A DNA stretch of 64,000 nt from an uncultured bacterium. Lineage in GTDB: Bacteria; Patescibacteriota; Minisyncoccia; Phycocordibacterales; PALSA-1337. Position numbers and translations under genes: made by a program. The notes under the pieces are model-generated. The model worked only from the letters and a program-made list of their open reading frames with translations. It was not told the DNA's origin and made no database searches. Positions 27,435 through 55,152 of this stretch are shown in pieces. How positions within the stretch are numbered: the first letter of the stretch is position 1; each line of letters opens with the position of its first letter. Location: positions 3,474 through 67,473 of the forward strand of contig CAIKAN010000028.1 in assembly GCA_903825415.1 (NCBI GenBank). Reading direction: 5' to 3'.

Positions 27435-28457
27435 ATGGAAATCTTGATCACAAAACCTAGCGCCGATTATGAGCTTCTAGATTCTGGAGAAGGGGAGAAA
27501 CTGGAACGATTCGGTGAGATAATATTGGCGCGACCAGATCCTCAAGCTCTCTGGAGAAAGAACGATCCTGCTTCTTGGAAAAAGGCGGGAGGGACATTCT
27601 CGCGCGACGGGAAAGGCGGAGATTGGTCTATGAAGAAGGATACGCCCGACAAATGGCAGATCGATCTGGCGGGACTGAAGTTCGTGATCAAACCGACGGC
27701 TTTCAAGCATGTGGGGGTGTTTCCCGAGCAGGCGGGGAATTGGGAGTGGGTTGAAGAGAAAATTTCAAAATCCAAAATCCAAATTTCAAATCAAATCCAA
27801 AATCCAAATGACGAATCGCGTCAGCCGCGACCGTCGCAGGCGGCGACAAGTGGCGACTTTGGCGGAGCGCAGCGGAGCCAAACGAAGGCACTTCGTCGCG
27901 CCGAGGAGGGAGCGGGGTACGAAGCAAACGATGAGATTGAAGTGCTTAATTTGTTCGGTTACACAGGCGGGGCGACTCTTGCTTGCGCAAAAGCTGGAGC
28001 CAAGGTAGTGCATGTCGATGGATCGAAATCAGCGATCGCTTGGGCCAGAGAGAATGCCGAGCTTTCAGGCTTAAAAGACAAGCCGGTGCGTTGGATCCTG
28101 GAAGATGCGCGCTCTTTCGTGAAGAGGGAATTGAAGCGCGGAAGGAAGTATGCTGGCATCATCATGGATCCTCCTGCCTTCGGCCATGGTCCGGACAATG
28201 AGCTGTGGAAGATTGAGGATGATTTCCTCCCTCTCATCGATGATTGCATGAAGCTCCTTTCGGATGCGCCGCTCTTCTTCATCATCAATGGGTATTCTGC
28301 TGGCTATTCCGCCATTGCTTATGAAAATAATTTGAAACCTTTACAGGAAAGATATGGGGGAGATATCGAGATGGGTGAGTTGGCTATTCAGGAATCCAAG
28401 ACCGATAGGCTCTTGCCTTGTGGGATATTCGCGAGATGGAGCGCAAAGAATAATTAG
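27435..28457 (+). CDS. RlmI/YccW-family SAM-dependent rRNA (m5C) methyltransferase carrying an in-frame repeat-element insertion
   Basis: The C-terminal half NLFGYTGGATLACAKAGAKVVHVDGS…IIMDPPAFG is a class I MTase. Residues encoded by 27757-27925 are low-complexity plus a GC-rich element. Confidence 0.7.
   Translation: MEILITKPSADYELLDSGEGEKLERFGEIILARPDPQALWRKNDPASWKKAGGTFSRDGKGGDWSMKKDTPDKWQIDLAGLKFVIKPTAFKHVGVFPEQAGNWEWVEEKISKSKIQISNQIQNPNDESRQPRPSQAATSGDFGGAQRSQTKALRRAEEGAGYEANDEIEVLNLFGYTGGATLACAKAGAKVVHVDGSKSAIAWARENAELSGLKDKPVRWILEDARSFVKRELKRGRKYAGIIMDPPAFGHGPDNELWKIEDDFLPLIDDCMKLLSDAPLFFIINGYSAGYSAIAYENNLKPLQERYGGDIEMGELAIQESKTDRLLPCGIFARWSAKNN
27808..27925 (-). repeat. GC-rich element, family 1, copy A (inverted orientation, inside a CDS)
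   Basis: Its reverse complement matches 53444-53552 and 54982-55100 (CCGCTCCCTCCTCGGCGCGACGAAGTGCCTTCGTTTGGCT…CGCCAAAGTCGCCACTTGTCGCCGCCTGCGACGGTCGCGGCTGACG…ATTCGTCATT). Confidence 0.65.
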
Positions 28458-28555
28458 AAAGGCATATTACGATGCCGTTAGAGAGTTTGGTGGGCATATC
28501 GCCTAATCACCAAAGTCGAATTTAGCAAGTCTCAGTTTTATGCTATGCTCATCCC

Positions 28556-29383
28556 ATGTCTGCCTTGATCATCGATGGCAAGAAGGCTCGAGAAGCTCTG
28601 CTCCTAGAGTTTGAGAAAAAGATAAAGGCCCTTTCTCGCGTGCCGACTTTGGCTATCATACAGGTAGGAGATCGCCCGGATTCTTCTTCATTCATTCGGG
28701 CCAAGAAATCATTTGCCAAGAAGATAGGCGTGAATGAAAGGCATATCCAATTACTGGAGAATGTTTCCCAGGAAGAGTTGATCGCTGAAATTGAGAAGTG
28801 CAATACCGATGAAGCCATTCAAGGAATAATCTTACAATTGCCTATACCGGATCATTTGAATAAAAGGGCTGCCATCGATTCCATTGATCCCAAGAAAGAT
28901 GTAGATGCTCTGACTTCCAAGAGTGTGGCGTTATGGACGGCTGGGAAAGGTATATTACCGGCTACCGCCAGAGGTATCCGCGAATTATTGAGATTTTACA
29001 AGATCGATTTGGAAGGGAAGGAGGTGACAGTTGTAGGGCGTTCTGAATTAGTAGGCACTCCCATAGCGGTGATGTGCAGGAATGAGGGAGCGATTGTGAC
29101 GGTCTGTCATAGCAAGACGGTTTCTTTATCAGAAGGGACTAGGCCGGCTGATATCTTGATCGTGGCGGTTGGAAAGCCGAAACTTATCGGCTTAGAACAT
29201 GTGAATAGCGGGCAAATCGTGATAGATGTGGGAATCTCTCGTATCGGGGAGGGAACATTGGCAGGCGATGTAGATTTTGAATCCGTGAAGGATGTGGTGG
29301 CGGCTATCTCTCCTGTACCAGGAGGAGTCGGGCCTATGACAGTCTTTGGATTATTCGAAAATCTGGTTGACTTGTCAAAATAA
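28556..29383 (+). CDS. folD: bifunctional methylenetetrahydrofolate dehydrogenase/cyclohydrolase
   Basis: IIDGKK…PTLAIIQVGDRPDSSSFIRAKKSFAKKIG…VVGRSELVGTPIAVM…. Confidence 0.85.
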   Translation: MSALIIDGKKAREALLLEFEKKIKALSRVPTLAIIQVGDRPDSSSFIRAKKSFAKKIGVNERHIQLLENVSQEELIAEIEKCNTDEAIQGIILQLPIPDHLNKRAAIDSIDPKKDVDALTSKSVALWTAGKGILPATARGIRELLRFYKIDLEGKEVTVVGRSELVGTPIAVMCRNEGAIVTVCHSKTVSLSEGTRPADILIVAVGKPKLIGLEHVNSGQIVIDVGISRIGEGTLAGDVDFESVKDVVAAISPVPGGVGPMTVFGLFENLVDLSK

Positions 29384-29532
29384 CCATCTTTGTGATAGGG
29401 TATCTCTCGGACATAGATCGCTCTCCTAGGTATAGCATCCGGCACAATGAATCCATGCAAGTCCTCTCGGATGCGTATCTCATGTTCGGTGCGAGGCAAC
29501 TCGCCTTCCCTTGCTCCGACAGATCATGGCCA

Positions 29533-29570
29533 AAGCCGGCACTGCCCTCGGGTGCCGGCCTTTTTTCTTG
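29533..29570 (+). terminator. rho-independent terminator
   Basis: GCCGGCACtgccctcggGTGCCGGC followed by TTTTTT. Confidence 0.6.
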
Positions 29571-29859
29571 CATACTAATAGCGCTTATTGTAGAGTTGCC
29601 ATGAATCCCTTGTCCCACCTTATCCTGCATGTAAGCATTTGCACCTACATTTGCTGACCGTCTTCGTTTCGGGCTGAATAACCAGAGTTACCACTGCTCT
29701 ACTCGACACTAGAAATGTGTCGCCCACAGTCATTATCTCCAACAAAAAGAGCTTCACGGGGATCATCCGACACCTAGGTGGGTGTCGGATTTTTCATTCA
29801 TAGCCTCGCATGCTAGTATTAGTCCATTACCATTATTGCTAATAAATATCATGAATATC

Positions 29860-30639: not shown

Positions 30640-30721
30640 GTATAAAGATCTTGTCTAGGATAAAAAAACCAGAGGCATGCCCCTGGTGTTCTTGCGGATC
30701 ATGATAGACCTTCGGTGTTCA

Positions 30722-31039
30722 TTATGCCGGTCTGCTTTGCTTGCCGCAACTTGGACAAGTGTAGACCAACTTCTGACCGCAGTCCGTAGCGGTCATCCGA
30801 GAATGATCTCTGTACAAGCTGGTCGAGCAATCTGAACAATAGCCGTAGTTTCTGGGTAGTTGGTGATACTCGACCAAAGGAACTTGTACGGATTTCTCAG
30901 CGATTGGCTGTGCAGGAGCGCTTTGACGTGCCCCATAAGCCTGAATGACTGACTGGAGGGTGCAGACGATAGGCTGGAATAATCCGTCGGTTAGATAGCC
31001 TATACGACAGCCTCTCGGGTCAACGATCTTTTGTATCAT
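30722..31039 (-). CDS. hypothetical Cys-rich (zinc-ribbon-like) small protein
   Basis: CxxC…CxxC pattern (CSDC…CPSC). No further assignment. Confidence 0.3.
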   Translation of the reverse strand: MIQKIVDPRGCRIGYLTDGLFQPIVCTLQSVIQAYGARQSAPAQPIAEKSVQVPLVEYHQLPRNYGYCSDCSTSLYRDHSRMTATDCGQKLVYTCPSCGKQSRPA

Positions 31040-31973: not shown

Positions 31974-31982
31974 GGAGTAATA

Positions 31983-32100
31983 ATGTCAAAATCCAAATTT
32001 CAAATGCCAAATCAAATCCAAAGCTCAAAATCCAAATTAACCCATGTGTTTTTTGACATTTGGGTTTTGGATTTGATTTGACATTTGGATTTTGAGCTTT
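31983..32100. repeat. AT-rich 'caaaat/ccaaat' hexamer array arranged as a large imperfect inverted repeat (hairpin) between nusG and rplK
   Basis: The left arm CAAAATCCAAATTTCAAATGCCAAATCAAATCCAAAGCTCAAAATCCAAAT is mirrored by ATTTGGGTTTTGGATTTGATTTGACATTTGGATTTTGAGCTTTGAAATTT. Confidence 0.6.
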
Positions 32101-32129
32101 GAAATTTATTGTTAAAAATAGTAACTACC

Positions 32130-32552
32130 ATGGCAAAAAAGATAATCAAAACTGTAAAAGTCCTCGCCCCAGCCGGTAAAGCTACTCCAGCGCCTCCGCT
32201 CGGACCTACTCTCGGTCAGGCTGGCGTCAATATCGGTGATTTCACCAAGAAGTTCAATGATGCCACAAAAGACAAGATCGGAGATATGATCCCTGTGGTC
32301 ATCAATGTCTATGAAGACAGGACTTACGATTTTATTCTCAAGACCCCTCCGGCTTCTAGCCTTATCCTAAAAGCTATCAAGAAAGACAAAGGTTCAGGCA
32401 AGCCTAATACCAGCAAAGTCGGCACGATCACCAAAGCTCAGATCAAGGAAATCGCTGAGAAGAAGATGCAGGACCTCAATGCCAACGATATAGAAGCTGC
32501 CATGAAGATCATCGCGGGAACGGCTAGGCAGATGGGGGTGGAAGTCAAATAA
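32130..32552 (+). CDS. rplK: 50S ribosomal protein L11
   Basis: [35 protein letters not shown]…. The track start at 32109 is a TTG; ATG 32130 is preferred. A terminator hairpin plus T-run follows at about 32585-32615. Confidence 0.85.
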
Positions 32553-32903
32553 AAAGTCAAAAGTTAAAAGGCAAAAGTAAACAAAAATACCGTCGCATGA
32601 GTGGCGGTATTTTTGTATGATATAATGACTGTATTACAATTAAATTAACTAACATGGATTCATCTGAATTAGGCGTTGAAAAAGTTATTGTCGATATCGA
32701 ATTTACAGCGTTGGATGGGCGAGTAGAGTGGCACAAGAAATATGCAGATGGATCGCAGGGGCCGGATGTGGCAGCAGAGGTAGACACTGATGATAGGAAT
32801 AATATTTTGAGATTGATAGAACGATTGCGCAAAGAGAATAACTTAGAACAACCACCAGAATAGATTCAAGGTATGTATATCAGCCCTTGCTAATATATTT
32901 CGG

Positions 32904-34142: not shown

Positions 34143-34151
34143 TTCAATACC

Positions 34152-43400: not shown

Positions 43401-44001
43401 GGCGCCATTCACGCCATTCTTCGCCGATTATCTGTACGAAGAGGCGGGCGGTGGATTGGAGAGCGTTCATCTTGAGAATTGGCCGGAGGCGAGCGAAATT
43501 GATATAAGTATCTTAAAGGATATGGAAACAGTAAGATATTTTTCTTCGAAAGGACTTGAGGCGCGATCACTTGCAAGGATAAATGTTCGGCAACCGCTTA
43601 AGACATTCCATATCAACGAATATAAATCATACATGCTCAAGCACGATTCAAATGGCTCCAATAAGGTTCCTAGTAGTGAGAAGATATCTCTGTCAGAAGA
43701 TATGGTCAATCTGATTCGTGATGAAGTAAATGTTAAGAATGTCTTATTTGATTCGACTATAGAAGAAGAGGTAAAACTAGACCTGATCATCACTCCTGAA
43801 TTAAAAGAAGAAGGCGATCTGCGAGAGCTTCTCCGCAAAATCCAAGACTTACGCAAGGAGAAAGGCTTAACTGTCGGTGACTTGGCGGTTTTGATGGTCA
43901 CGGATGAATTCAAGGCTATCGTTACCAAGAATGGAGACGCTATCAAGAAGGCTACGAATCTTAAGAGTATTGAATTTGGCGCAAAGTTGGAGATAAAATA
44001 G
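40471..44001 (+). CDS. ileS: isoleucine--tRNA ligase with an embedded histidine-phosphatase (PGAM-like) domain and low-complexity in-frame inserts
   Basis: HHLEAR (HIGH-like), WCPRCGT, the editing-domain region, DWAISRERYWGTPLPVW, DVWFDSGS, DQTRGWFY and KMSKS. Residues about 508-668 (nt about 41992-42474) read SIMRHGQAENN…SPFVRTMETT…EVGVGDWSG…GGETYADV…ISHETPLF, a histidine-phosphatase fold. Confidence 0.9.
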   Translation: MDELKPNKSPHAEREERILASWKEKGIFEKSLEKNKGKGKDFLFYEGPPTANGRPGIHHLEARAFKDAIPRYKTMRGFYVRRKGGWDTHGLPVELQVEKELGLKSKKEIEQYGIGAFNDKCKESVWKYVHEWEGFTDRMGYWVDLKNPYITYKPEYIESVWNVIKTVGDKGLLYKDYKVVPWCPRCGTALSSHELAQGYQDVKDLAVTVKFRINNQKAKGKNESQNSKVEDTYLLAWTTTPWTLPGNVGLAVNSKIEYVKIKVEDDGFYILAKSRLAVLKDTKYSTVETMKGSELVGMEYEPLYPFLKDNISGPEKEKLGNAYKVYAADFVTTEDGTGIVHTAVMYGQDDFELGTKVGLPKYHLVNEDGTFKKEAGFLAGAFVKDPGTDVAIIKDLAGRGLLFAKEKYEHSYPFCWRCHTPLIYFARDSWYIKMSALRNDLVKENEGIHWEPGHIKEGRFGEWLSEVKDWAISRERYWGTPLPVWSCEKCKKIKVVGSKADVSQKPKNSYSIMRHGQAENNTLGIISDKPEYPHHLTDLGRQQVAETAESLKGSKFDLIFVSPFVRTMETTQILKGKLGWKDEQIHVDSRIHEVGVGDWSGRKVADTMKEFKYEDRFERCPKGGETYADVKKRMGDFLYDLESKYEGKKILIISHETPLFLLVAVAKGLDRKQSLDLRGDKEYIANAQEQDLDFEIIPHNSEYELDLHRPFIDEVKLACECGGTMNRAKEVLDVWFDSGSMPFSQDHYPFENKELINGKGYPADFISEAIDQTRGWFYTLHAIGILMGKGKAFKNVICLGHILDAKGKKMSKSIGNVVNPWEMMDKYGADALRFWMYSVNQPGDSKNFEEKTVDEIVKKVFNLAANVLSFYKLYEDDEIKNQKSKIKNTDKKVKNNQSQNVLDQWIVARLNQLISTITKGLDGYIFMEPARAIRDFMADLSQWYLRRSRDRFKEEGEDKEQALATTRFILITLAKVMAPFTPFFADYLYEEAGGGLESVHLENWPEASEIDISILKDMETVRYFSSKGLEARSLARINVRQPLKTFHINEYKSYMLKHDSNGSNKVPSSEKISLSEDMVNLIRDEVNVKNVLFDSTIEEEVKLDLIITPELKEEGDLRELLRKIQDLRKEKGLTVGDLAVLMVTDEFKAIVTKNGDAIKKATNLKSIEFGAKLEIK

Positions 44002-44028: not shown

Positions 44029-44757
44029 ATGTATAGCATCCAAACTACCCCTGGTTTCATCATCGATTCGCGGGCATACGGCGAAGCGGGGAAGATGTTA
44101 TTCATTTTCACGAGAGATCTGGGTTTGGTCATGGCGGTGGCGCAGGGGATACGCTTCGAAAGATCGAAGCTGCGGCCTTTCACGCAAGACTATTCATTCG
44201 GGGAATTCTCATTTGTCAGAGGGAAAGAGATGTGGAGATTGACGAGCGCGCAGGAATTCGATGAGTCCGGCGAGCTCGGTGAATATCATTTTCCCTTGTC
44301 AGGTAAAATCGCCTGCTCCAATTGCAACCGTATCATGGCTTGCCAGAGGCGCCAAGATACGGGCAATTGTAGCAGGCTCGAATCGCATTACCTGACAAGG
44401 GAAAATGATATTCACCGAGCTCGCCTACGCTCTGAATTGATAGCACGAGTAGCTTCGCTCCTTCGGCGATTCCTTCGAGGGGAAGAAGCGCATCCTGAAT
44501 TATTCGAATGTGTGAGGGCTTGTGGCGTCTTCTTGGCTAGCGATGAAGGCGACCTGACTTCAGAACAAATGGAGACACTTGAATCGTTGATCGTGATCCG
44601 CATCTTGCATAATCTAGGATATGTGGGGGATGTCTCGGGTTTGAATGGGGAAGTCTCTTCCAATGAGATCAGTCTGAGCTTGCTCGATGGCTTGAAACAA
44701 CATAGGGTGGCGATGAATAGGCATATAAACAAAGCGTTGAAGGAATCGCATTTATAA
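44029..44757 (+). CDS. recO: DNA repair protein RecO carrying an in-frame palindromic-element insertion
   Basis: N-terminal OB-fold region (…GKMLFIFTRDLGLVMAVAQGIRFERSKLRPFTQ…) and a C-terminal helical domain. Residues encoded by 44281-44413 correspond to the repeat element. Confidence 0.65.
   Translation: MYSIQTTPGFIIDSRAYGEAGKMLFIFTRDLGLVMAVAQGIRFERSKLRPFTQDYSFGEFSFVRGKEMWRLTSAQEFDESGELGEYHFPLSGKIACSNCNRIMACQRRQDTGNCSRLESHYLTRENDIHRARLRSELIARVASLLRRFLRGEEAHPELFECVRACGVFLASDEGDLTSEQMETLESLIVIRILHNLGYVGDVSGLNGEVSSNEISLSLLDGLKQHRVAMNRHINKALKESHL
44281..44413. repeat. palindromic element, family 2, copy 2, with perfect 26-bp terminal inverted repeats, located inside recO
   Basis: GAATATCATTTTCCCTTGTCAGGTAA … TTACCTGACAAGGGAAAATGATATTC are perfect reverse complements. 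The core AAAATCGCCTGCTCCAATTGCAACCGTATC…GGCGCCAAGATACGGGCAATTGTAGCAGGC…ATCGCATT has nested inverted repeats. Confidence 0.75.
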
Positions 44758-44901: not shown

Positions 44902-45306
44902 TTAAGCCGGAAAGACTGACATAAAATACTTTTGCTTGTGCTTATTCTCTTTGATCTGAACATAGAATAACTCTCCAGTATGAATTTGACCGATAAATCT
45001 ATGGAGTATCTCTGATTTTCTCATGGGATTTGTCTGAGAATACGGTTTTAACATTGTATTCTCAATGAGATCTAGAGCACAAAGATAATATTTGAGACGG
45101 CGTACGCGATCATGCATATTCTTTTCTCTAAGATGTGCCCAGAAATAATCTAGTAATATCTTCTCTTTTTTGAAATATTTCGATCTGATATATGGCCGCC
45201 TTTTGGTTCTGGATTCGATATCCTTGTATATAGATAATGCCGTCGGATAGATTTCCGAATATTTTGTTCCAGCAAGCGGCCGCATCATCGTCTTGAATAT
45301 ATTCAA
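44902..45306 (-). CDS. hypothetical protein
   Basis: ORF only. Basic and Tyr-rich. No motif recognised. Confidence 0.3.
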   Translation of the reverse strand: MNIFKTMMRPLAGTKYSEIYPTALSIYKDIESRTKRRPYIRSKYFKKEKILLDYFWAHLREKNMHDRVRRLKYYLCALDLIENTMLKPYSQTNPMRKSEILHRFIGQIHTGELFYVQIKENKHKQKYFMSVFPA

Positions 45307-45777
45307 GGTTTCCAGATTCTATCAAACCATTATGAAAAAACGCTGAATTTTTGTTCAAAAAAGGATAAAGTTTTTGTGAGCTATTGGTTTTCAATAATAT
45401 CTGGGGAGGGAATATCAGATAGGAGCAATGAAAGATCCCCATAGGGCTACGGATATGGTATGGAGTGCGATCAAGAAGCGGTGTTTAGAGGAGAGAGGCC
45501 TTGCGGTCTCTCACACTGCTTCCTTATCTGATCCCAAGTTATATCCATAGCCCCATGGGGACTAGGTTTCAGCTTTCGCTGATCGAGGTGATGGTGACTC
45601 TATGAGCCTACAGATCCCAGATCCTATAAGCTCATTAAAGTGGAGTAATTTTTGACAAGTTTTACTCCGTGATCAGTACGGATACCGATCAAACTTGCCA
45701 AGGAGGCGATCCTTGGGGTCGTGCCGCTGCGCTCTGCGGCCGAGGTTATGGAAGGTTTATTTACGACCTATAAAGAA

Positions 45778-47364
45778 CTACAATTTGAGACCGTCTAAGA
45801 CACCCCAGACTTCTTTTCCCAGACCAAAACCCTCTGTATTCTGCCCGACCAAAGGTGTGGATGCCTCCGAAGTCTCTTCTATCGACTGTGGCGGTTCAGG
45901 ATCTGATGGTGTCGTTACGGTTTTGGTCAACTGTAGAAGCAACTTTTTCTCATACACCTTTGCTAGCGCTTCCACATGAGCCACTGTTGGACTACTCATC
46001 CCTGACTCCCAAAGCGCTCGATTGGCCAGCTCCTTTGGATCTGTCCACTGAACGAGGTCCACCCTTTTATTCTCCTGTTGTTTTCCATTCAGGGTGACGC
46101 TTTTGATCTTTCCCATCGTTCCTTTGTCTCCAAAAGGAATCTGACACTTTGAAGGATGGCCTCGGAACCACTCACCGTAGCTCCATTCGCCTCTCCTGCT
46201 ACCTGTCTTTCCCACGATAACCAAGACGTCGTTTTGTCCCGGCATTTCAAGAATGGGCAAGAGGTCGTTAGTGCCGCAACTGACGCGGACGAATCCTTCT
46301 GGTGCAGTCGGGATTTCGTTCAGGCGGCTTTGCAGCCACTTGTATTCATCAGGCGACAGACGCTCGCCTTTGACAAAGTAAACGATCTCCTTGCATTTTC
46401 CATCGTCGTCATAACGATCTTCGGCGGTGCTCGTCAACACACCCTGTGTTTCGATGAACAGTTGCCAGAGATGATCGAGGCGGTCTTGGCGGATCTTTTC
46501 CGCACCGAACACCAACCGTTCCAATTCCGAGATATCCTCTTTATTGAACCGATAGAAGCGTTCGCGTTTTCCCGGCCAATTCTTCTCGTAACGGATGGTA
46601 TGGGCCGATTTTAACCCTGGAGACATCGGGAAATAACTGATGTCTCCGTTTATTTCTCCACCCAATGTCTCAAATATCAGGCCATAGTGGCCATTGGGAC
46701 ATGAATGGTCTCTCAGTGCTGTCCCATCTCTCCTGGCCACTTCCTCCAACCGCGCCATGAACTGCTGGCGCAGGGGAAAGACTTCTGCTTCGGTTTGGAG
46801 AAATTTCTCAACCTCTTCGAGAGGTGCGACCCATAGCCGGCTTTCTAATTTGCCTCGTATGCGCTCTTTCCTAAGAAGAAATGCTGCGGCGTTGCCAAAA
46901 GCGAGCAGGGTATTGGTCTCCACATCTGAGTTCGGAGTGTCACTGAGGACTTCCGAAATCACTGCACCCCATGATGGGTTGCCGGATTCAGACGCGCACT
47001 CAACGATCCCGAGTCCGGGAATACCGTACTGGCCAAGAAGGCGAGTAACCTTGCCCAAGTATGATTGCTTGGCGCTCTCGCGCTCCTCCTGCACAGCTTT
47101 GACCGTATCATTCCGACGCTCAGCAAGGATGCCTCGCCCTTCGTCGAGCACCTTTCTGAGAGTTTCTGGTTCCGCGTCCGGGATGATCATTCCGCCTTTT
47201 GACAAGACGATCCCAAACTTACGGAACTCATCGGGTGCGATTTCGTAGTTACCTACGAATGTACCACCCTTCTTTGCGGCGGCGATTGAACCGCCCCACA
47301 GATATTTTGCGAACGATTCGTTCGCAACAATAACATCCGTGGTAATTTTTTCAAATTTCGGCAT
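45778..47364 (-). CDS. hypothetical 528-aa protein at the distal end of a higher-GC island
   Basis: Long ORF with GC richer than the flanks. No motif recognised by eye. Confidence 0.4.
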   Translation of the reverse strand: MPKFEKITTDVIVANESFAKYLWGGSIAAAKKGGTFVGNYEIAPDEFRKFGIVLSKGGMIIPDAEPETLRKVLDEGRGILAERRNDTVKAVQEERESAKQSYLGKVTRLLGQYGIPGLGIVECASESGNPSWGAVISEVLSDTPNSDVETNTLLAFGNAAAFLLRKERIRGKLESRLWVAPLEEVEKFLQTEAEVFPLRQQFMARLEEVARRDGTALRDHSCPNGHYGLIFETLGGEINGDISYFPMSPGLKSAHTIRYEKNWPGKRERFYRFNKEDISELERLVFGAEKIRQDRLDHLWQLFIETQGVLTSTAEDRYDDDGKCKEIVYFVKGERLSPDEYKWLQSRLNEIPTAPEGFVRVSCGTNDLLPILEMPGQNDVLVIVGKTGSRRGEWSYGEWFRGHPSKCQIPFGDKGTMGKIKSVTLNGKQQENKRVDLVQWTDPKELANRALWESGMSSPTVAHVEALAKVYEKKLLLQLTKTVTTPSDPEPPQSIEETSEASTPLVGQNTEGFGLGKEVWGVLDGLKL

Positions 47365-47612
47365 ATAGCCTTTCCACCTCCTCCCAGCATCTTTGATGGA
47401 AGAGATTGTTCTGTTGTCGGGATGCTCCGACTGTTGTTGACTAACTGATCAACCCGCGATTCCTATCGTGGGCTGAAAAAGTTTGGTGAATGTCCGCATA
47501 CATTCACCATTGGGAACCGCATTATGCATCAAGCGGGATGCAAGAGGTTTTTTCAATGAGTCCTTCTAAACTCATAAATGTTTTCAGCGTGTACATTCAA
47601 CGTCTCGTTTCT

Positions 47613-48146
47613 TTAGCCTGCGATCTGACCGAGCAGGTGGCGGTACACCATAGCTGCTACCGCCGAATCGTAGAGGGGATTATGCGTCCCACCCTCGAAC
47701 TCGCCGACGGACAGATTGTGTTTCTTCACATATCCATCCACCGAGGTCGCATCCTCGCCTGCCTGTTGCAGGTTTCCGCTTACATCGTAGAGCGGGTAGG
47801 GTGCATCCCAGTCGCCAATGAGCTTCTGGGTGTGCATGTCGCGAAGAACTTTCGTCTCTACGATGTAGCCCATGTGAACGACCACATCGGCTCCCTCCTT
47901 GTTGGCTTTGTAGAAGGCCGCGAAGGCAGCGAGGAGTGCCTCGTACGTGTCGTGGGTCACGGGGATGTTTGCGATCTTGGGGAGGACGTTCTCCTTGACC
48001 CAAGGGTCGGTGACTTCCGTGTCCGGGAGCCGTCCGACAAACCGAGCGATTTCGGAGCCTTTCTCGTCATAGACGAGCGCACCGATGGCGAACGCCCGTC
48101 CCCACAGCCCGTTTGTTTCGGCGTCAAAACTAAACAATGTCTTCAT
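47613..48146 (-). CDS. DEDDh-type 3'-5' exonuclease (DnaQ/oligoribonuclease-like fold)
   Basis: Exo I motif FSFDAETNGL (D-x-E) and Exo III motif H-x4-D (THNPLYDSA). 177 aa. Confidence 0.55.
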   Translation of the reverse strand: MKTLFSFDAETNGLWGRAFAIGALVYDEKGSEIARFVGRLPDTEVTDPWVKENVLPKIANIPVTHDTYEALLAAFAAFYKANKEGADVVVHMGYIVETKVLRDMHTQKLIGDWDAPYPLYDVSGNLQQAGEDATSVDGYVKKHNLSVGEFEGGTHNPLYDSAVAAMVYRHLLGQIAG

Positions 48147-48515
48147 ACTGTAATTCCATTTCTTTTCCTGATTTTTCCGCCGGAATCGCGGTCAAGCCAT
48201 CATGCTCCTGCGTTAGGTTTCACGCAGAAACAGGTTGCTGCCAGACAAGCAACACCGGACAAGAGCCGAAGCTCCACATGCGAGCTGATGGTTGAAACAA
48301 TCTTCTTGAACACCTCCTTTGAAGAGAGATGCTCAAGATACTGTTCCAACGATAAACACCTATGTTATGAACAAAGGCTCTACCGACCGCCGAGATCTCT
48401 CTCAGCAAGCGGATAAAGTCCAGCACCGATCTTTCGATGGTGCTGGGAATTAATGAACGCCGCAGCGTTCATTGTGATGGTGATCAAGCAACTATGAGCC
48501 TGCGGGCTCACTGGA

Positions 48516-49238
48516 CTATTCGCTGGAGTAGAGCAGTGCCTCGAGCTGCCCTATGGTTTTGGCTTTTTCCGATGCGTACTGAGGATTGCCGAGCCAACCG
48601 AGACTCGGGTCCTTCCAGATGGAAAGAGCGACCGACCCTCCAGCGTTTGGAGAATCATTCTCCAGTGATTCCGCGAAATCCGCCGCGGGGCGAATCTCTT
48701 CGGAGACGAGACGGTTGAGTAGGTGACCAAGGTCACCCAGGGCGGCCATGAGGCCATCCCAAATCTGGGTGTGTCTCTTGGCCGATTTGAGGGAGACGAT
48801 GCCCTCAATGTAGTCGTTGAAGTCTCCGGCGCCGTCGTCTTTCTCGCCTTTCTTGGCGCAGAGGGAGAGTCGGAATCCGTATTCGTCTTCCAAGGAGGTG
48901 ACGATGTCTTTGATGGGCACGCCGGCTCGGATTTTCGACGACAGGCCGTCGAAGGTCATGTGGCCGATGGTCACCTGACCTTTCAATACGGCCACCTCGC
49001 CGGGAAAGTTGCCCCTCCCGGCGATTGGATTCCAGAACTTATATCCGCTGTCGGTCTTGTAGACCTCTTCATGGATATCGAGCCTGATGGTGGAATTCAA
49101 GTTGCACTTTTTGGCCCACGCACGGACGATCTTCTCGTCCGCCGAACCCCACTTTCCATCTCGTTCAATGGCGACATCGATGTCGCCTGCGGCCGTCGTA
49201 GAAACAGAACTGCCGAATATTACAATGATTCTTGCCAT
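48516..49238 (-). CDS. nucleotidyltransferase-fold (Pol-beta superfamily) protein with an unknown C-terminal domain
   Basis: N-terminal IIVIFGSSVSTTAAGDIDVAI matches the hG[GS]-x9-13-DhD minimal NTase signature. The rest is unassigned. Confidence 0.5.
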   Translation of the reverse strand: MARIIVIFGSSVSTTAAGDIDVAIERDGKWGSADEKIVRAWAKKCNLNSTIRLDIHEEVYKTDSGYKFWNPIAGRGNFPGEVAVLKGQVTIGHMTFDGLSSKIRAGVPIKDIVTSLEDEYGFRLSLCAKKGEKDDGAGDFNDYIEGIVSLKSAKRHTQIWDGLMAALGDLGHLLNRLVSEEIRPAADFAESLENDSPNAGGSVALSIWKDPSLGWLGNPQYASEKAKTIGQLEALLYSSE

Positions 49239-49542
49239 AAGTACTCTTTGATTTTTGTTGTTGATGTTTAACTGCGGATTTCAAACCTGAATGATCAGGC
49301 CTAAAATCCGTAGTTAAAATTTGTAACAACAAATAGCTATGGCAGAACGATTAGACTTACGAACACGGTCGAATCACTCTACCGGATGCCGAGATCTTCC
49401 TCAACGGCCGGATAAAGTGGAGAAGTGACCATACTTTAATGAACACTTCTCCGACATTCATCAAAGGCAAGAGCTCGCAATACCGCTCTTGCTGTTAACC
49501 AAAGAACCATTTGCGCATTGCGATACGCACCCCGGAAAGGGA

Positions 49543-49779
49543 CTATTTGAGCAGGGCGGTCAGCTCGCTAGCCGCCTCACCACCACCGTTGTGATCGAGC
49601 CATTCGACCACCCGGTCGAACACTTCGCGAGGCACCGTAACAGGCGCCACCGCCTTCGCCCATCCGGCTGCCAATTGGTTCCCAAACTGCCGGAGAGTTT
49701 GCGGGTCGACCACCTCGGCGACCCCGAAGCTGCCGTCAGCCGCTCCAGTTTCCCGGAGAATTTTTGTTGTGATCATCAA
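49543..49779 (-). CDS. hypothetical small protein
   Basis: 78-aa ORF. GC-rich. No motif. Confidence 0.25.
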   Translation of the reverse strand: MMITTKILRETGAADGSFGVAEVVDPQTLRQFGNQLAAGWAKAVAPVTVPREVFDRVVEWLDHNGGGEAASELTALLK

Positions 49780-49887
49780 CTCTCATTCACCACACGGCGG
49801 TGAGACTCTTTGATCATTCAAACTACAGCTCGCACTTGCGAGCAAATCAAATAGTAGAAGCTCCAGATGGCCTTCTACTATAGGGGA

Positions 49888-49918
49888 TCTTGCGACCCCT
49901 CTTGTCTTGCCGACCTAG
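49888..49918. repeat. 31-nt direct repeat TGCGACCCCTCTTGTCTTGCCGACCTAGAAG, copy 1, part of a roughly 75-nt repeated unit
   Basis: Identical 31-mer at 50519-50549. The extended units share …GTCAGCA…AAGAGGRRTAACATT. Confidence 0.65.
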
Positions 49919-50100
49919 AAGCCCAGTATGCTTCAAGTCAGCAGTAAAAGAGGGGTAACATTTTGACTCTACTGTTTTCGTCCTTTAGGACTCATCAGTC
50001 GGGATACGCATCCCGAGAACAGTGGGGGAGATGGATTGAACATCTCCCCGTCACGATCTAAAAAGAACTATTTTTTGCCAGTGTGGCGGTGACGGGAGTT

Positions 50101-50367
50101 CTATAGATAATGTTCTTTTCTGTAGAACTCTTCGGTAGCGTAGGATATTCTCCCCATTCCTACCTCCACTTGGTAACGGGCGTGTGCTCGTCCCAGATCC
50201 CACCTGAGGGTGGAATCCAACCTTGCCTTCTTCCTCAGGATTGCGTGACGCAGTCCTGAGATCCATGTGGTCGCTGCCCACATGATGGCCCAAACAGCCG
50301 CCATGATAGCAACCATCGCCACCAGCCCCATCAAACCACCGACGAAAGCTTTAAATAGCATGAACAT
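50101..50367 (-). CDS. small membrane protein (single TM); start chosen at the internal Met with a good RBS
   Basis: MFMLFKAFVGGLMGLVAMVAIMAAVWAIMWAATTW… is preceded on the minus strand by AGGAGaaaagttATG. Flanked by the 31-nt direct repeats. Confidence 0.4.
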   Translation of the reverse strand: MFMLFKAFVGGLMGLVAMVAIMAAVWAIMWAATTWISGLRHAILRKKARLDSTLRWDLGRAHARYQVEVGMGRISYATEEFYRKEHYL

Positions 50368-50518
50368 AACTTTTCTCCTCCCAGTATTATTCGGCATACT
50401 GGAGCCGTTTTGAAGATGTTTGAATGCCGGCACATCTTCGTAAGCCGGAAGACTTCCGCTATACTTATTCGTATAGTCTTTTGCTAGGATCACTACCCAG
50501 GCTACTCGCCTAGGAATT

Positions 50519-50549
50519 ATGCGACCCCTCTTGTCTTGCCGACCTAGAA
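50519..50549. repeat. 31-nt direct repeat, copy 2
   Basis: Identical to 49888-49918. Confidence 0.65.
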
Positions 50550-51284
50550 GTATTTTACGCTATCGGTCAGCACGACGAAGAGGAATAACATTGCAGAACT
50601 ATTTGTTCCGCGTTTTCCCATTCAAGGAAATGCAAAGCATCTCGCTTGAACTTTATCTTCGCTATTCTACTGTCAAACATCATCCTTGTCTTTTACCTTC
50701 ACTTTCCTTCTTCGCATAAAGCCTTGAAGGACTTCAGGTCACAAGGACATTTCCGTCAAGAAAGCATACCTTCTTGTCTAGTCTGTCCTCACGACTGCGG
50801 ATTTTCAAAAGGGAAGTGATGTCGTCTTGCCATCATAGTTCGATGAAATCACTATAATAAACAAAAGCGGTCCATATATCCCTTCAAATCAAATAGAGAA
50901 GAGATATATAGACCGCCTTTCTTGTGATGAGCATATCAATAATGCCCCAAAGCGATGTTATAGGACTCTCCTCTAAGAAAATCCATGTATTCGTTTGTTA
51001 TGTACATACCGTACTCTGACTCATATAGTCTAGCATACCCTGTACAAACTGTCAAGTATATTTCATTATGTTTATGTAGTCATGAGAGTATGGCTCAGAA
51101 TATGGGTATTTTGAGAGGCCTATTTCATATTCTCTTGAGCATTTTTTTGTGGTTGTTGAAATAGGTTGCATCTCCATGAATTTTCTCCGCCAATCGGCGG
51201 ATTCAAATTCCCCTTCTTCGCTCCTCGTGGTTCGACTAGCTCACCACAAGTTACCTCGGAGCTTCGCAGGGCAAGCAAATTCCA

Positions 51285-51410
51285 ATTTTCAATCAAATTT
51301 CAATGAAATAATCTCCAATCGATCGGTCATGGTTCTTTCTAATGAAAATTTGAGACTTGTAAATTGATTGAAAATTGGAATTTGAAAATTGGTCATTCGA
51401 CCATATTCAA
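51285..51410. repeat. AT-rich 'ccaatt/ttcaat' hexamer array with inverted-repeat symmetry
   Basis: TTCCAATTTTCAATCAA … TTGATTGAAAATTGGAA. Confidence 0.5.
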
Positions 51411-51470
51411 CACACAGCCTTTTGGTTACCAGACGGATTTGTAGTCTAAATATATGTTATAATCTGACAA

Positions 51471-53417
51471 ATGCTTCCCGAGAATAAAAGCAGCATCGAG
51501 GAACTGAAGAATTCCTTGTATTCGAGGAATGCGCCGGAGGTGCGCACTAGGAGGAAGCTTCGATATGCAGATATCAAGGACGATGTACAGAAGGGATGGG
51601 AGCCTCCCAAGGAAGAAAAGCCCCCGGAACCGGTCGCCGCGCCGGAAGCGAGAGTAAGCGGACACCCTATGTCATTTTTCACAAAGATATTCATCGGTTC
51701 GATCTTCTTCTTCATTGCAGCAGTGGGGATTGGCCTCTATCTTTTCTTGAACGGCGCCAATCTGATCTCTGCCAATAATATAGACATCTCAGTGAGCGGT
51801 CCGGTATCTGTGCCTGGAGGCACGCCGGTCACATTCAATGTGATGGTGACAAATAACAACAGCGTCGATCTTCAGTTGGCCGATCTACGCATCGATTTTC
51901 CGGCCGGCACGACGGATCCCAAGGACCCGACTCAAGATTTTTCTACATACAAACAGCTGATAGGCGATATACCGGCCGGAGGCAGCGTCAAACGCACGGT
52001 GCAAGCGATAGTTTTTGGAGAGGAGAATATGCAAAAACAAGTGATGGTCTCGCTCTCTTACAACGTCAAGGGATCTTCTTCCATATTCACCAAGGAGAAG
52101 TCGTATGACATCCTCATCAATTCCTCGCCAGTGACTCTGGCGGTCGATTCCTTCAAGGAAGTGTCTTCGGGACAAGAATTCGATATGAAGGTCAGCGTTA
52201 GATCGAATTCTCAGGACGTTCTGAAGAATGTGCTATTGACTGCCACTTATCCTTTCGGTTTCAGCTATATATCCTCTGATCTAAAGCCTCTATCAGACAA
52301 TGCTACGTGGCGTATCGGCGATATACCGGCTGGCAGAGAGCGCACGATCACTATACATGGAAAGCTCACTGGAGTTGATCAGGATAATCGCAGTTTCCAT
52401 TTTTCCGTAGGTTCGCAGAGCTCGCGCAATCAGAATGCGATAGGCACGGAGTTCATGTCTGCCGATCAAGAGGTGGCTCTAAAGAAGCCGTTCATGACTA
52501 TAGGGTTGTCCGTCAACGGCGATAAGCAGCAGACAAGCGATGCTATTGGGCAATTCAATCAACCCATATCTATGGAAGTATCTTGGTTCAATAATCTGCC
52601 GACGGCGATATCAGATGCAGAGATAGTCGTGAAGCTGTCCGGCTCAGCCTATGACAAGACCATGGTCCAACAAAATGAAGGGTATTTCCGCTCATCGACT
52701 GATGAGATGGTCTGGAATCAGCAGTCTACTCCGGTATTGGCGTCTATAGGTGCTGGACAGGGAGGCAAGGTCAATTTCTCTATCACCCCGCGCGATCTAG
52801 GTGCATCTGGCAGGCCTCTGGTCAATCCGACAGTTTCATTCACCGCCAATGTGACCGCAAAACATACGCAGGAATCAGGAGTCGCGGAATCTCTAGCTTC
52901 AGCTGCGGCTCGAAATGTCAGGATATCGTCGTCGGTATCGTTGTCGGGACAGGTGGTCAGAACCATTGGCCCATTCGTAAATACCGGGCCCGTTCCTCCG
53001 AAGACCGATCAGAAGACCACTTATACTATCGTCTGGTCTCTGGATAATACTGTCAACCCTGTAGAAAACGGTCAGGTGACTGCGACCTTGCCTCTCGGTG
53101 TCAAGTGGCTGAATGTGATCAGTCCGACGACTGAAGATTTGAGCTATGACGAAAGCACGGGTATAGTCACTTGGAATACAGGTGCTCTGGGTACGAATAT
53201 CGCTGCAAGCGGTTCACGCAAGCAGGCTTCTTTCCAGGTGTCATTCGAGCCGAATTCAAACATGGTCGGAAGCGCCCCAACTCTTATCAATGATGCGACA
53301 TTCACCGGAACAGATTCATACACAGGCGCCAATCTGATGAGTAAGCAGACTTATCTGACGACTAGCTTCAGTACGGATCCGGCATTCAAGGATGGGGACC
53401 AGAGAGTGGGGAATTGA
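51471..53417 (+). CDS. hypothetical membrane-anchored extracellular protein (beta-rich, CARDB/DUF11-like repeats)
   Basis: Charged N-terminus, a TM helix (FTKIFIGSIFFFIAAVGIGLYLFL) and a long Ser/Thr/Val-rich beta region. Confidence 0.45.
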   Translation: MLPENKSSIEELKNSLYSRNAPEVRTRRKLRYADIKDDVQKGWEPPKEEKPPEPVAAPEARVSGHPMSFFTKIFIGSIFFFIAAVGIGLYLFLNGANLISANNIDISVSGPVSVPGGTPVTFNVMVTNNNSVDLQLADLRIDFPAGTTDPKDPTQDFSTYKQLIGDIPAGGSVKRTVQAIVFGEENMQKQVMVSLSYNVKGSSSIFTKEKSYDILINSSPVTLAVDSFKEVSSGQEFDMKVSVRSNSQDVLKNVLLTATYPFGFSYISSDLKPLSDNATWRIGDIPAGRERTITIHGKLTGVDQDNRSFHFSVGSQSSRNQNAIGTEFMSADQEVALKKPFMTIGLSVNGDKQQTSDAIGQFNQPISMEVSWFNNLPTAISDAEIVVKLSGSAYDKTMVQQNEGYFRSSTDEMVWNQQSTPVLASIGAGQGGKVNFSITPRDLGASGRPLVNPTVSFTANVTAKHTQESGVAESLASAAARNVRISSSVSLSGQVVRTIGPFVNTGPVPPKTDQKTTYTIVWSLDNTVNPVENGQVTATLPLGVKWLNVISPTTEDLSYDESTGIVTWNTGALGTNIAASGSRKQASFQVSFEPNSNMVGSAPTLINDATFTGTDSYTGANLMSKQTYLTTSFSTDPAFKDGDQRVGN

Positions 53418-53443
53418 TAGAAAAAATTAATATAGTAAATTAC

Positions 53444-53552
53444 TCCGCTCCCTCCTCGGCGCGACGAAGTGCCTTCGTTTGGCTACGCTACGCTCCGCCA
53501 AAGTCGCCACTTGTCGCCGCCTGCGACGGTCGCGGCTGACGAGATTCATTTT
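53444..53552 (+). repeat. GC-rich element, family 1, copy B (intergenic, upstream of glyS)
   Basis: CTCCGCTCCCTCCTCGGCGCGACGAAGTGCCTTCGTTTGGCTACGCTACGCTCCGCCAAAGTCGCCACTTGTCGCCGCCTGCGACGGTCGCGGCTGACGAGATTCATTTTTGG. Confidence 0.65.
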
Positions 53553-53586
53553 TGGTAATTATGCGGTTTTAGTATAGAATACCCTC

Positions 53587-54972
53587 ATGTCTAACCAAAC
53601 CAAACCCGATCTCATGGAATCTTTGATTTCGCTATGTAAGAGGCGCGGCTTCATCTTTCAAGGTTCCGATATATATGGCGGTTTGGCAGGTACTTGGGAT
53701 TATGGTCCGCTCGGTGTAGCTATAAAGAACAATATCAAGAAGCTGTGGTGGAAGCGTTTTGTAGATGATCGTGACGATATGTTCGGCATGGATGCCGCCA
53801 TACTCATGAATCAGAATGTCTGGAGGGCTAGCGGCCATGTAGCCGGCTTTTCTGATCCTCTGGTCGAATGCAAGAAATGCAAGAACCGTTTCCGATTCGA
53901 TCAATTGCCGGGGGTGACTATGGCAAAGAATGCCGAAGGCAAGAATTCATGGCAGATGTCCAAGGAGACTGTCTGTCCGAGCTGTGGTTCAGAGGGTTCG
54001 AAGTTCCTGAGCGAGCCGCGCGATTTCAATATGATGTTCCAGACTCATGTCGGAGCGGTTCAGGATGATTCTTCTATCTCATATTTGCGCCCGGAGACGG
54101 CCCAAGGCATGTTCGTGAATTTCAAGAATATCATGGATTCGCAGCATCCCAAGCTGCCATTCGGCATGGCCCAGATCGGCAAAGCCTTCAGAAACGAGAT
54201 CGCGCCGCGCGATTTCCTATTCAGGGTCAGGGAATTCGAGCAGATGGAGATCGAGTATTTCGTCCATCCGAAGGAGTGGGAGAAGGTCTTCGAGGATTTC
54301 AGATCGGAGACCAAAGCCTTCTTTTCAGATCTAGGATTGGGTATGTCCAAAGTCCATGAATTGGAAGTGCCAGATGGCGAGCGCGCTCATTACTCCAAGA
54401 GGACTATAGATTTTGAATTTGATTTCCCATTCGGCCGGAAAGAATTGAGCGGTCTGGCATACAGGACAGATTTTGACCTGAAGCAGCATTCGGAATTCAG
54501 CAAGGTCGATCTCTCATATTACGATGAAGCGAACAAGGAGAGATTCCTGCCGCATTGCATTGAGCCGTCGTTCGGATTGGATCGGGCGGTCTTGGCGGTT
54601 TTGGCGGATTCGTATACCGAAGATAGTCTTGGCGGAGAGACTAGAGTCTATCTCAAACTTTCGCCGGCTGTGGCGCCATTCAAGGTGGCAGTTTTTCCGC
54701 TCCTCAGGAATAAGCCCGAGCTGATCAAGAAAGCAGAAGAGATCTTCAAGGCTATAAAGAAAGAGATACCCGCAGCGACCTTCGATGATAATGGCAATAT
54801 CGGCAAGCGCTATCGCCGCCAAGACGAGATAGGTACTCCTTATTGTGTGACTATCGACTTTGATACGATCGAGAAGGGCGCAGGCGTTACAGTCAGGGAT
54901 AGGGATAGCGGGAAGCAGGAGCGCGTCGGTGAAAAAGAGCTTGTGGCGTATTTGAAGTCGAAAATTAATTAA
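53587..54972 (+). CDS. glyQS: glycine--tRNA ligase (dimeric class II GlyQS type)
   Basis: 461 aa with class II motifs (…FRNEIAPRDFLFRVREFEQMEIEYF…, a GLDR motif). Confidence 0.9.
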   Translation: MSNQTKPDLMESLISLCKRRGFIFQGSDIYGGLAGTWDYGPLGVAIKNNIKKLWWKRFVDDRDDMFGMDAAILMNQNVWRASGHVAGFSDPLVECKKCKNRFRFDQLPGVTMAKNAEGKNSWQMSKETVCPSCGSEGSKFLSEPRDFNMMFQTHVGAVQDDSSISYLRPETAQGMFVNFKNIMDSQHPKLPFGMAQIGKAFRNEIAPRDFLFRVREFEQMEIEYFVHPKEWEKVFEDFRSETKAFFSDLGLGMSKVHELEVPDGERAHYSKRTIDFEFDFPFGRKELSGLAYRTDFDLKQHSEFSKVDLSYYDEANKERFLPHCIEPSFGLDRAVLAVLADSYTEDSLGGETRVYLKLSPAVAPFKVAVFPLLRNKPELIKKAEEIFKAIKKEIPAATFDDNGNIGKRYRRQDEIGTPYCVTIDFDTIEKGAGVTVRDRDSGKQERVGEKELVAYLKSKIN

Positions 54973-54981
54973 ATGCAAAAT

Positions 54982-55152
54982 CACCCCGCTCCCTCCTCGG
55001 CGCGACGAAATGCCTTCGTTTGGCTCCTCCGCCAGCCGGCGGATCCGCCAAAGTCGCCATTTGTCGCCGCCTGCGACGGTCGCGGCTAACGCAATTCGTC
55101 ATTTTTGCATTTTACATTGTCATTTTCCATTTTGATTTTTACATTTTACATT
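54982..55152 (+). repeat. GC-rich element, family 1, copy C, plus an AT-rich CATTTT-type tail (between glyS and the peptidase gene)
   Basis: CACCCCGCTCCCTCCTCGGCGCGACGAAATGCCTTCGTTTGGCTCCTCCGCC…GCCAAAGTCGCCATTTGTCGCCGCCTGCGACGGTCGCGGCTAACGCAATTCGTCATTTTTGCATTTTACATTGTCATTTTCCATTTTG…. Confidence 0.65.

Follow-up and report, generated by a model that had tools for sequence, protein, structure and literature searches.

In-frame insertion of repeats into genes is a rare route by which proteins gain peptides, documented mainly in Rickettsia and in a few Proteobacteria rich in repetitive extragenic palindromes (REPs). Precedents on record are the Rickettsia palindromic elements (RPEs) and REPs located within genes, which are often repair genes (PMC10969869, PMC3733652). 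RPE-1 to RPE-10 (Ogata et al. 2000/2002), in the part of PMC10969869 that summarises them, are repeats of 100–150 bp with hairpin potential, which lie between genes and in frame within unrelated housekeeping genes, are translated as an extra peptide compatible with the fold, have no transposase of their own and form several families per small genome. The element described here resembles them in these respects, its translation being predicted from an open frame. It is a GC-rich repeat present in three copies (A, B and C) in a 64-kb stretch (64,000 nt; hereafter the window) of contig CAIKAN010000028.1 from an uncultured, Paceibacteria/Taylorbacteria-like bacterium of the candidate phyla radiation (CPR; assembly GCA_903825415.1). 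Copy A lies in frame within the gene of a class I S-adenosylmethionine (SAM)-dependent methyltransferase. Full-text literature searches retrieved no description of in-frame repeats in CPR bacteria, and a search for REP-encoded peptides gave no match. We consider it probable, though by no means certain, that the element is a non-autonomous repeat of small size, dispersed in the DNA of a Paceibacteria (CPR) lineage and tolerated in a permissive interdomain linker of the enzyme.

Three copies of a GC-rich repeat

A whole-window repeat search revealed inverted matches between 27800-27919 and 53441-53560 (120 nt, 92%), between 27806-27866 and 55044-55104 (95%), and between 27851-27918 and 54983-55050 (84%). 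Two sub-patterns of 21 and 26 nt, allowing up to 3 mismatches, each match just these three loci (mean in dinucleotide shuffles, 0.00), and an nhmmer profile built from all copies finds no additional or degenerate copy within the window. The three copies listed in a first-pass annotation of this DNA are borne out by these searches, as is their arrangement, in which B and C are reverse complements of A and occupy intergenic DNA on either side of glyS, the glycyl-tRNA synthetase (GlyRS) gene (Table 1). Copy B lies 26 nt past the stop codon that ends the DUF11-protein gene (51471-53417), and 46 nt separate it from the glyS start (53587); copy C lies 12 nt past the glyS stop (54972). The BLAST identities are 96.3% over 107 nt for A and B, 82.8% over 157 nt for A and C, and 79.6% over 147 nt for B and C. 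Private substitutions are present in every copy, which argues against a chimeric assembly. The segment with B, glyS and C recurs at 100% identity in L022, assembled independently from a different sample, which indicates that this arrangement is no assembly accident.

The conserved core measures about 100 nt, where about 110 nt had been given, and with 71% GC against 46.5% for the window it is indeed strikingly GC-rich. On the G-rich strand, the core starts with CGT(C/T)AGCC... (CGT(C/T)AGCCGCGACC..., also written CGTCAGCC...) and ends with ...GAGCGGGG. The tag at the conserved boundary is CGTC in 5 copies and CGTT in 2. A small extra hairpin, GACGAATCGCGTC, stands at 27810-27822 and is common to 5 of the 7 full copies.

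Table 1. Positions of the repeat copies, their AT-rich neighbours, the host gene and the retroelement in the window.
Feature	Position	Strand	Description
Host gene	27435-28457	+	340-aa class I SAM-dependent methyltransferase, PF10672, 2IGT-like
AT-rich module	27762-27810	+	short-period, AAATCC/CAAAAT-like units; directly 5' of copy A, read as ISKSKIQISNQIQNPN
Copy A	27819-27918	+ (G-rich strand)	in frame within the methyltransferase open reading frame, read as RQPRPSQAATSGDFGGAQRSQTKALRRAEEGAG
Copy B	53443-53541	- (G-rich strand)	intergenic, between the DUF11-protein gene and glyS
Copy C	54984-55091	- (G-rich strand)	intergenic, between glyS and the M16 peptidase gene
AT-rich tail	55098-55152		short-period, CATTTT/ACATTT units; adjoins copy C, up to the M16 peptidase gene start (55160)
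Diversity-generating retroelement	852-3416		complete
Retroelement target open reading frame	852-1583		
Variable repeat	1424-1537		
Template repeat	1901-2014		
Reverse transcriptase	2379-3416		RVT_1 (E 3e-27)

AT-rich tails had been ascribed to all copies, which proved overstated. A long (~50 nt) AT-rich short-period tail accompanies A and C only; copy B is followed just by CATTTTTGG, and six further copies found in metagenome contigs (below) have no tail. The module beside copy A is 89.8% identical over 49 nt to 32057-32105 and is similar also to 31983-32022. It is a separate, independent AT-rich module that is itself dispersed. Such short-period modules (AAATCC, CAAAAT and AATTTTC units) occur at 27322-27377, 31982-32116, 32541-32595 and 51272-51401 as well as beside copy C, mostly in intergenic DNA just upstream of starts or past stops, and include two inverted pairs (31982-32036 with 32052-32106; 27322-27377 with 51343-51398).

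The methyltransferase and its interdomain linker

PF10672 matches residues 165-252 of the methyltransferase. The closest solved relative is 2IGT, a 332-residue SAM-dependent methyltransferase (E 2.5e-64), whereas RlmI (3C0K) matches the catalytic core only (E 2.5e-9); the earlier label "RlmI-like" is therefore loose but not wrong. The homologs are almost all from Patescibacteria/CPR (those named are 'Candidatus Taylorbacteria', 'Paceibacterota' and 'Pacebacteria'), as are those of GlyRS, and the neighbourhood DsbA-VKOR-methyltransferase-FolD-SIMPL-SecE-NusG-L11 is conserved across these organisms.

Translation of the open reading frame confirms that copy A is read through with the peptide quoted in the first-pass annotation. 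In the alignment with 2IGT, which covers residues 4-110 and 164-339, 2IGT has only 2-3 residues of its own between the two parts, and the residues that are extra in the window protein (~111-163, 53 residues) fall exactly at the repeat. An insert of about 55 aa had been proposed; its measured size is 49-53 aa. When 35 orthologs are aligned, the conserved blocks flanking the insert are intact, all invariant residues are kept and the window insert sequence occurs in no other protein. Searched against 5.8 billion proteins, the six-frame translations of the element match no protein except that of the window, so that no ortholog was found to carry a homologous segment independent of the repeat. The insert is thus lineage-specific, as had been proposed. 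The AlphaFold2 model (predicted local distance difference test, pLDDT, 87; predicted template modelling score, pTM, 0.84) gives both domains a pLDDT above 90 and shows residues 122-168 as a coil without secondary structure between them (pLDDT 45-69), while the adjoining AT-rich module forms the end of helix 97-121. In this model, the methyltransferase copy would be a disordered loop at a permissive linker. The alignment with 2IGT and the modelled coil agree with the original view of a tolerated linker peptide that separates the N-terminal region from the SAM-methyltransferase core.

The closest relative, a sister species (L018; GCA_026395075.1), has a syntenic gene whose flanks share 88-91% nucleotide identity with the window. 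The N domains of the two proteins are 91% identical and the C domains 95% identical, and the insert region is unalignable. The nonsynonymous to synonymous ratio (dN/dS) is 0.085 in the N domain and 0.062 in the C domain (dS ~0.63), and purifying selection on the two domains that flank the insert is accordingly strong. The low dN/dS and the conservation of the domains relative to L018 indicate that the methyltransferase is kept functional, and the repeat copy is retained with both enzyme domains intact.

The linker has received other insertions. Measured between fixed anchors, it has a median length of 14 residues among the 118 orthologs that are closest (57-80% identity); it reaches at least 25 in 31 of them (26%) and at least 40 in 22. 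The inserts are mostly unrelated in sequence, and 74% of the 118 orthologs have no insert of at least 25 aa. At the DNA level, the best-strand folding z scores of four ortholog inserts are -7.0 (L018), -3.6 (L019), -4.2 (L020) and -1.9 (L021). The three that fold above shuffles are 147-195 nt long; coding controls of equal length score -1.7 to +1.4, and the L021 insert is barely beyond them. The insert of the sister species (L018, 715-909) is unrelated to that of the window and consists of two inverted, loop-expanded units of the REP-like motif CTGGATTCCCGCYTTCGCGGGAATGAC. This motif occurs in at least 120 IMG/VR contigs (L023-L102 and beyond), often several times per contig, the likeness of the insert to these loci being confined to ~18-27 nt. 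One expanded loop of the same insert holds the 15-mer CTCCGCTGCGCTCCG, which equals the loop of window copy A. The L019 insert comprises (ATTCAAG)x4 followed by a GC-rich hairpin, a composite layout as in the window. Looked for as repeats in their own genomes, the ortholog inserts are each single-copy within ±10 kb. A second, less frequent insertion hot spot lies at alignment columns 381-422, before the C-terminal RLLPCGIFARW motif, with inserts of up to 47 aa; that of P0098 (..NPKSEILNKSDLSAEALAKAEE..) is an AT-rich stretch followed by a GC-rich stretch. The composite inserts, which arose more than once independently, and the unrelated linker fillings hint at a shared insertion mechanism that targets AT-rich DNA, for which linker-coding DNA, by its resemblance to intergenic DNA, may serve as a target.

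The insert might instead be adaptive for the methyltransferase, the repeat having been co-opted as a charged, flexible linker or as an arm that contacts RNA, with an effect on substrate binding or on the spacing of the domains. The intact open reading frame, the strong purifying selection on both domains and the expanded linker in 26% of the close orthologs would fit such a role, as would the composition of the peptide, in which R, K, Q, S and G abound, a trait of many RNA-binding tails (its predicted tryptic peptide is QPRPSQAATSGDFGGAQR). However, the unrelated ortholog inserts and the 74% of close orthologs that do without one speak against it, and so does the different element found at the site in the closest relative. 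Moreover, the peptide simply translates a repeat whose other copies are mostly intergenic, the model shows it as disordered at low confidence, and it offers no conservation by which selection on the insert itself could be tested. We therefore regard adaptation as a distinctly improbable explanation of the insert, compared with a repeat that the linker tolerates.

Dispersal, folding and origin

Metagenome contigs were scanned with one 21-mer, which matched eight contigs. Six of them hold the whole or most of the element (L010, L011, L012, L013, which equals L016, and L017), and the other two are chance matches. In all copies, the likeness begins and ends at common bases, and the flanks are unrelated. 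These contigs have a second repeat family (below) but no unique sequence in common with the window, which indicates that their copies are other loci of related genomes. An association with specific neighbouring genes, which the first-pass annotation had raised, was not found: rpsJ, rnpA/yidC, a class II aminoacyl-tRNA synthetase (asnS/aspS-like), tRNA-Pro, glyS, the DUF11 protein and the M16 peptidase have nothing in common. The intergenic copies (B, C, L011, L012, L013 and L017) are located 12-26 nt past a stop codon or ~20 nt from a tRNA gene. The usual place of a copy is thus AT-rich DNA shortly past the end of a gene, at a distance of a few bases up to a few tens; occasionally, copies lie inside genes. 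The copy at L013:2831-2964 (= L016:910-1043) contains a nested 31-nt insertion (CAGCGTCCTCCGTAGCCTTGGCGAAGGGGGA) within one arm, and in L010 just the central stem-loop is retained, between outer arms that differ; with these two copies, the GC-rich elements look modular. A genome-contig scan with GTCGCCGCCTGCGACGGTCGC gave 9 matches, none of which is the element, each being a lone 21-23-mer in a GC-rich genome; a viral-contig scan with the element pattern gave 0 matches, and BLAST searches of phages and plasmids gave no match to the element.

The metagenome copies bear directly on a local origin, by duplication, ectopic recombination or gene conversion within one region or, in a weaker form, by assembly chimerism. 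The three window copies lie within 27 kb, two of them flank one gene, and hallmarks of transposition were not found, all of which would suit such an origin. It is largely refuted by the six further copies on other contigs, which adjoin rpsJ, rnpA/yidC, asnS/aspS-like, tRNA-Pro and recG. In addition, copy B is more like the distant inverted copy A (96.3%) than its neighbour C (79.6%), which argues against local duplication, and both the identical B-glyS-C of L022 and the private substitutions of each copy stand against a chimera. With nine copies in unrelated contexts, we consider a local origin very improbable and retain the reading of a dispersed repeat, as first suggested. The divergence of A and B (3.7%), set against a dS of ~0.63 from the sister species, places their common ancestor much later than the species split, unless gene conversion intervened; the insertion into the methyltransferase would accordingly have occurred long after that split. 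Around glyS, the closest GlyRS ortholog is 79% identical and the only additional contig, L022, does not differ from the window; the intergenic DNA there is therefore not comparable for empty sites.

A second in-frame copy occurs in L010, where 66 nt from the centre of the element, 89% identical, lie inside the RecG gene, between helicase motif II (DEQHRFG) and motif III (SMTATPIPRT). This stretch spans 82 residues in L010 and 4 in T. maritima RecG (1GM5). The RecG copy and the methyltransferase copy use one and the same frame of the G-rich strand (FGGAQRSQTKAFRRAEEG vs FGGAQRSQTKALRRAEEG), and both copies are stop-free with the conserved domains of their hosts intact. That frame contains a stop codon in 4 of the 6 intergenic full copies (TAG in copy B) and none in copy A. 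Between 4 and 5 of the 6 frames are open in most copies, and the GC content accounts for most other frames being open in all copies. An intragenic copy would survive only where a frame-keeping length, a stop-free GC-rich sequence and a permissive linker coincide. In the methyltransferase, the AT-rich module and the GC core would be translated together as a loop of ~50 residues between the N-terminal domain and the Rossmann core. An intein, an intron and translational bypass were rejected on grounds of size and of the open frame.

On the G-rich strand, every copy can form one long bulged hairpin, the apical loop of which is the variable central segment on top of a TTTGGC...GCCAAA stem; the internal hairpins and the variable segment described earlier are present. 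The apical loop of copy C is 9 nt longer, with an extra TCCGCC/GGCGGA hairpin. Standard pairs occupy 92.9% of the cells over 8 copies, compared with 32-50% when the partners are slid by 1-3 columns, and the covariation score is 0.096 vs 0.069 in shuffles (3 of 500 reach it), figures that come from nearly identical copies and a structure derived from one of them. An inner-stem pair is G-C in 5 copies, A-U in 2 and G-U in L010 (hand-aligned row; the unadjusted counts are GC:5 AU:3), and copy C carries a compensatory G-C to A-T change in the inner stem. Loop positions vary freely.

These features raise the alternative of a functional cis-acting RNA or DNA signal past genes, such as a REP-like 3' stabiliser of upstream mRNA, a non-canonical terminator or attenuator, or a protein-binding site, which would owe its dispersal to its usefulness, with the intragenic copies as by-products; such a signal could still be of mobile origin. 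REPs are mostly downstream of coding regions and plausibly act as RNA (PMC3733652). The regular position of the intergenic copies past stop codons or near a tRNA gene, the T-run after B, C and L017, the kept hairpin and the one compensatory pair are in line with this. In contrast, Rfam gives 0 matches at the gathering score in the whole window and 0 at E<=1 in 53300-55300. An intrinsic (Rho-independent) terminator, sought as a GC-rich stem-loop with a T-run within 0-2 nt, is absent from the 3' ends of B and C, the T-run being at least 14 nt from the closing stem. The copies are transcribed in no uniform orientation: in 5 contexts the sense strand is the G-rich one, for B and C it is the C-rich one, and the L011 copy stands between convergent genes. 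For B, the C-rich sense strand does not surpass shuffles in folding (z -0.4). One of the copies is located in the 193 nt that separate rnpA from yidC, two genes on the same strand. These two genes commonly form one operon, in which case termination there would be unexpected. Overall, we give a cis-acting signal a small share of the probability, well below that of a tolerated dispersed repeat. The structured RNA motif put forward earlier likewise comes out weak: Rfam has no family for it, its orientation is mixed, its folding z is -2 to -4 on one strand, and it shows one compensatory pair.

Several results weigh against a dispersed mobile repeat. No target-site duplication was found at the borders of 7 copies, and the same 7 copies have no convincing terminal inverted repeat, their ends CCCCGCTCCCTCC... 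and ...GGTCGCGGCTGACG pairing patchily (4+2+2+4 bp, with bulges). The sizeable open reading frames of the window contain no transposase Pfam domain, and no REP-associated tyrosine transposase (RAYT; Y1) is present among the window open reading frames. The mobile selfish element that the first-pass annotation envisaged is accordingly favoured by its dispersal but not by any of these hallmarks, and transposition itself is putative. Gene conversion could keep the copies alike. The family is rare, with 9 copies in all collections scanned and 2 of the 9 intragenic. The folding z scores of copies A, B and C are modest in part (-2.1, -2.4 and -4.0 on the G-rich strand; -0.6, -0.4 and -3.3 on the other), and self-reverse-complement alignments of cores A and B are no better than shuffles. 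The dyad symmetry is thus imperfect and modest, and the idea of a strong palindrome was dropped after that test. Finally, translation of the methyltransferase insert is a prediction from the open frame.

If the element is copied, possible routes are a transposase acting in trans, REP/RAYT-like processing of a single-strand hairpin, and recombination. The one transposase found near a copy belongs to L011, where an insertion sequence (1-1163) with perfect 18-bp inverted ends (CTGACCCGCCTGCACTTT / AAAGTGCAGGCGGGTCAG) encodes a DDE_Tnp_1 transposase (94-1140). Its ends are unrelated to the element; the insertion sequence adjoins the copy's 5' end, as read on the C-rich strand, and the end of the insertion sequence is also the exact start of the contig. 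Two other classes of element were considered and rejected. The attC sites of integrons have the core sites RYYYAAC and GTTRRRY, which the ends GT(C/T)AGCC and GAGCGGGG misfit; the flanked gene is the essential glyS, and the window has no integrase domain. A template and variable repeat pair of a diversity-generating retroelement is excluded since the differences among A, B and C are not adenine-specific, and the true retroelement of the window lies elsewhere and is unrelated (Table 1).

The second repeat family, of ~150-165 nt, forms a near-perfect long hairpin with 38-49-nt arms (z ~-16). It is found at 44265-44430, within the RecO open reading frame 44029-44757, at 24990-25150 and 61680-61845, and partially at 59239-59308, as well as at L017:75-215, L017:8225-8375 and L013:3510-3645. 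Its centre is conserved (CAATTGCAACCGTATCTTGCC-TTACCGGAGGC-GGCAAGATACGGGCAATTG), and its outer arms vary between copies and are complementary within each. The RecO copy is in frame between RecO_N (residues 6-75) and the C-terminal part; RecO orthologs are mostly 190-200 aa long and match only residues 1-77 and ~130-242. In-frame AT-rich tracts are also present in an isoleucyl-tRNA synthetase (IleRS)-like class I aminoacyl-tRNA synthetase (1176 aa, 40471-44001), at 41106-41159 (..RINNQKAKGKNESQNSK..) and 43104-43157 (..EIKNQKSKIKNTDKKVKNNQSQN..). The same gene carries an extra domain, a histidine phosphatase (His_Phos_1) inserted at residues 512-678. One 64-kb window therefore contains a methyltransferase and a RecO with two different in-frame repeat families, and an IleRS with in-frame AT-rich modules. 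It is conceivable, although we hold it for rather doubtful, that linker-colonising hairpin repeats are a pervasive, undescribed source of lineage-specific protein insertions in Paceibacteria and other CPR bacteria.

Other features of the window lie apart from the element. In the diversity-generating retroelement, 17 of 17 repeat mismatches are at adenines of the template copy; L018 has a similar repeat pair and a weak RVT_1 match beside the methyltransferase, and the P0021 contig has an RVT_1 gene. The region 44902-51470 has a GC content of 0.52 and a reversed GC skew and may be foreign or mobile DNA. Its open reading frames (44902-45306, 45778-47364, 47490-48416, 48516-49238, 49489-49803 and 50101-50493) have no Pfam match, and its repeats comprise a 60-nt direct repeat at 49884 and 50513 and a 69-nt inverted repeat (45305-45373 with 60180-60248). 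An intergenic palindrome at 26018-26182, between the polysaccharide deacetylase and DsbA genes, has 37-nt arms that are 95% complementary and 91 nt apart, and is only distantly like the second repeat family.

Comparison with known repeats

The element extends in-frame repeats to a very different, genome-reduced CPR lineage, with two families in one 64-kb window and one linker struck repeatedly. Such repeats may explain part of the unexplained insertions that hamper the alignment and annotation of CPR proteins; for annotation, structure and phylogeny pipelines they are a practical warning: the extra 50 residues are repeat DNA and not a domain. The methyltransferase also offers a tractable test of the permissiveness of interdomain linkers.

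Among MITEs (transposable elements of the miniature inverted-repeat type), Correia/NEMIS, ERIC, RUP, Nezha and the enterobacterial RU-1/2/3 are likewise small, non-autonomous and dispersed, with stable folds, gene-adjoining positions and in-frame fusions (Delihas, PMC2229807, PMC2759123; PMC10969869). However, their defining features, namely terminal inverted repeats matching a parent insertion sequence and target-site duplications, were not found for the element. The GC clusters or 'byp' elements of yeast mitochondria are GC-rich, hairpin-forming mobile clusters within an AT-richer genome that also land in protein-coding genes. They are organellar and skipped by the ribosome, whereas copy A is stop-free and in frame, which makes bypassing needless.

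REPs and bacterial interspersed mosaic elements (BIMEs), like the element, are GC-rich hairpin repeats that mostly lie shortly downstream of coding regions and have one end marked by a conserved tetranucleotide, and they occur occasionally in genes, notably those of DNA repair, as here in RecG (the GC-rich element) and RecO (the second family) (PMC3733652). CGTC REPs have no dedicated transposase (PMC3733652). The REPs tagged GTAG or CGTC are 20-40 bp long; their stem, of 8-9 bp, begins with A-T pairs, their loop measures 4-5 nt and their tail is short and CCA-like (PMC3733652). In contrast, the element has ~100 nt and a bulged composite stem, the REP features of stem, loop and tail misfit it, and no RAYT gene was found among the window open reading frames. 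The truly REP-like unit is CTGGATTCCCGCYTTCGCGGGAATGAC, from which the L018 insert is built.

In behaviour, the element parallels the RPEs as well as intragenic REPs. To the likenesses with RPEs given at the outset can be added that the conservation of the element starts with CGT(C/T) and that RPEs end in CGTC, according to Di Nocera et al. (PMC3733652). The element differs from RPEs in its host, which is a CPR/Paceibacteria and not an alphaproteobacterium, in its 71% GC within a 46.5% GC genome, in its weak dyad symmetry, in the AT-rich module of two copies, and in its few copies, of which 2 of 9 are intragenic. The likeness to RPEs is one of behaviour, drawn apart from any sequence comparison, and membership of the RPE, REP or MITE families is not claimed. 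On the best reading, the phenomenon of repeats inside proteins, known from Rickettsia, would be represented here by a new family and in a phylum new to it.

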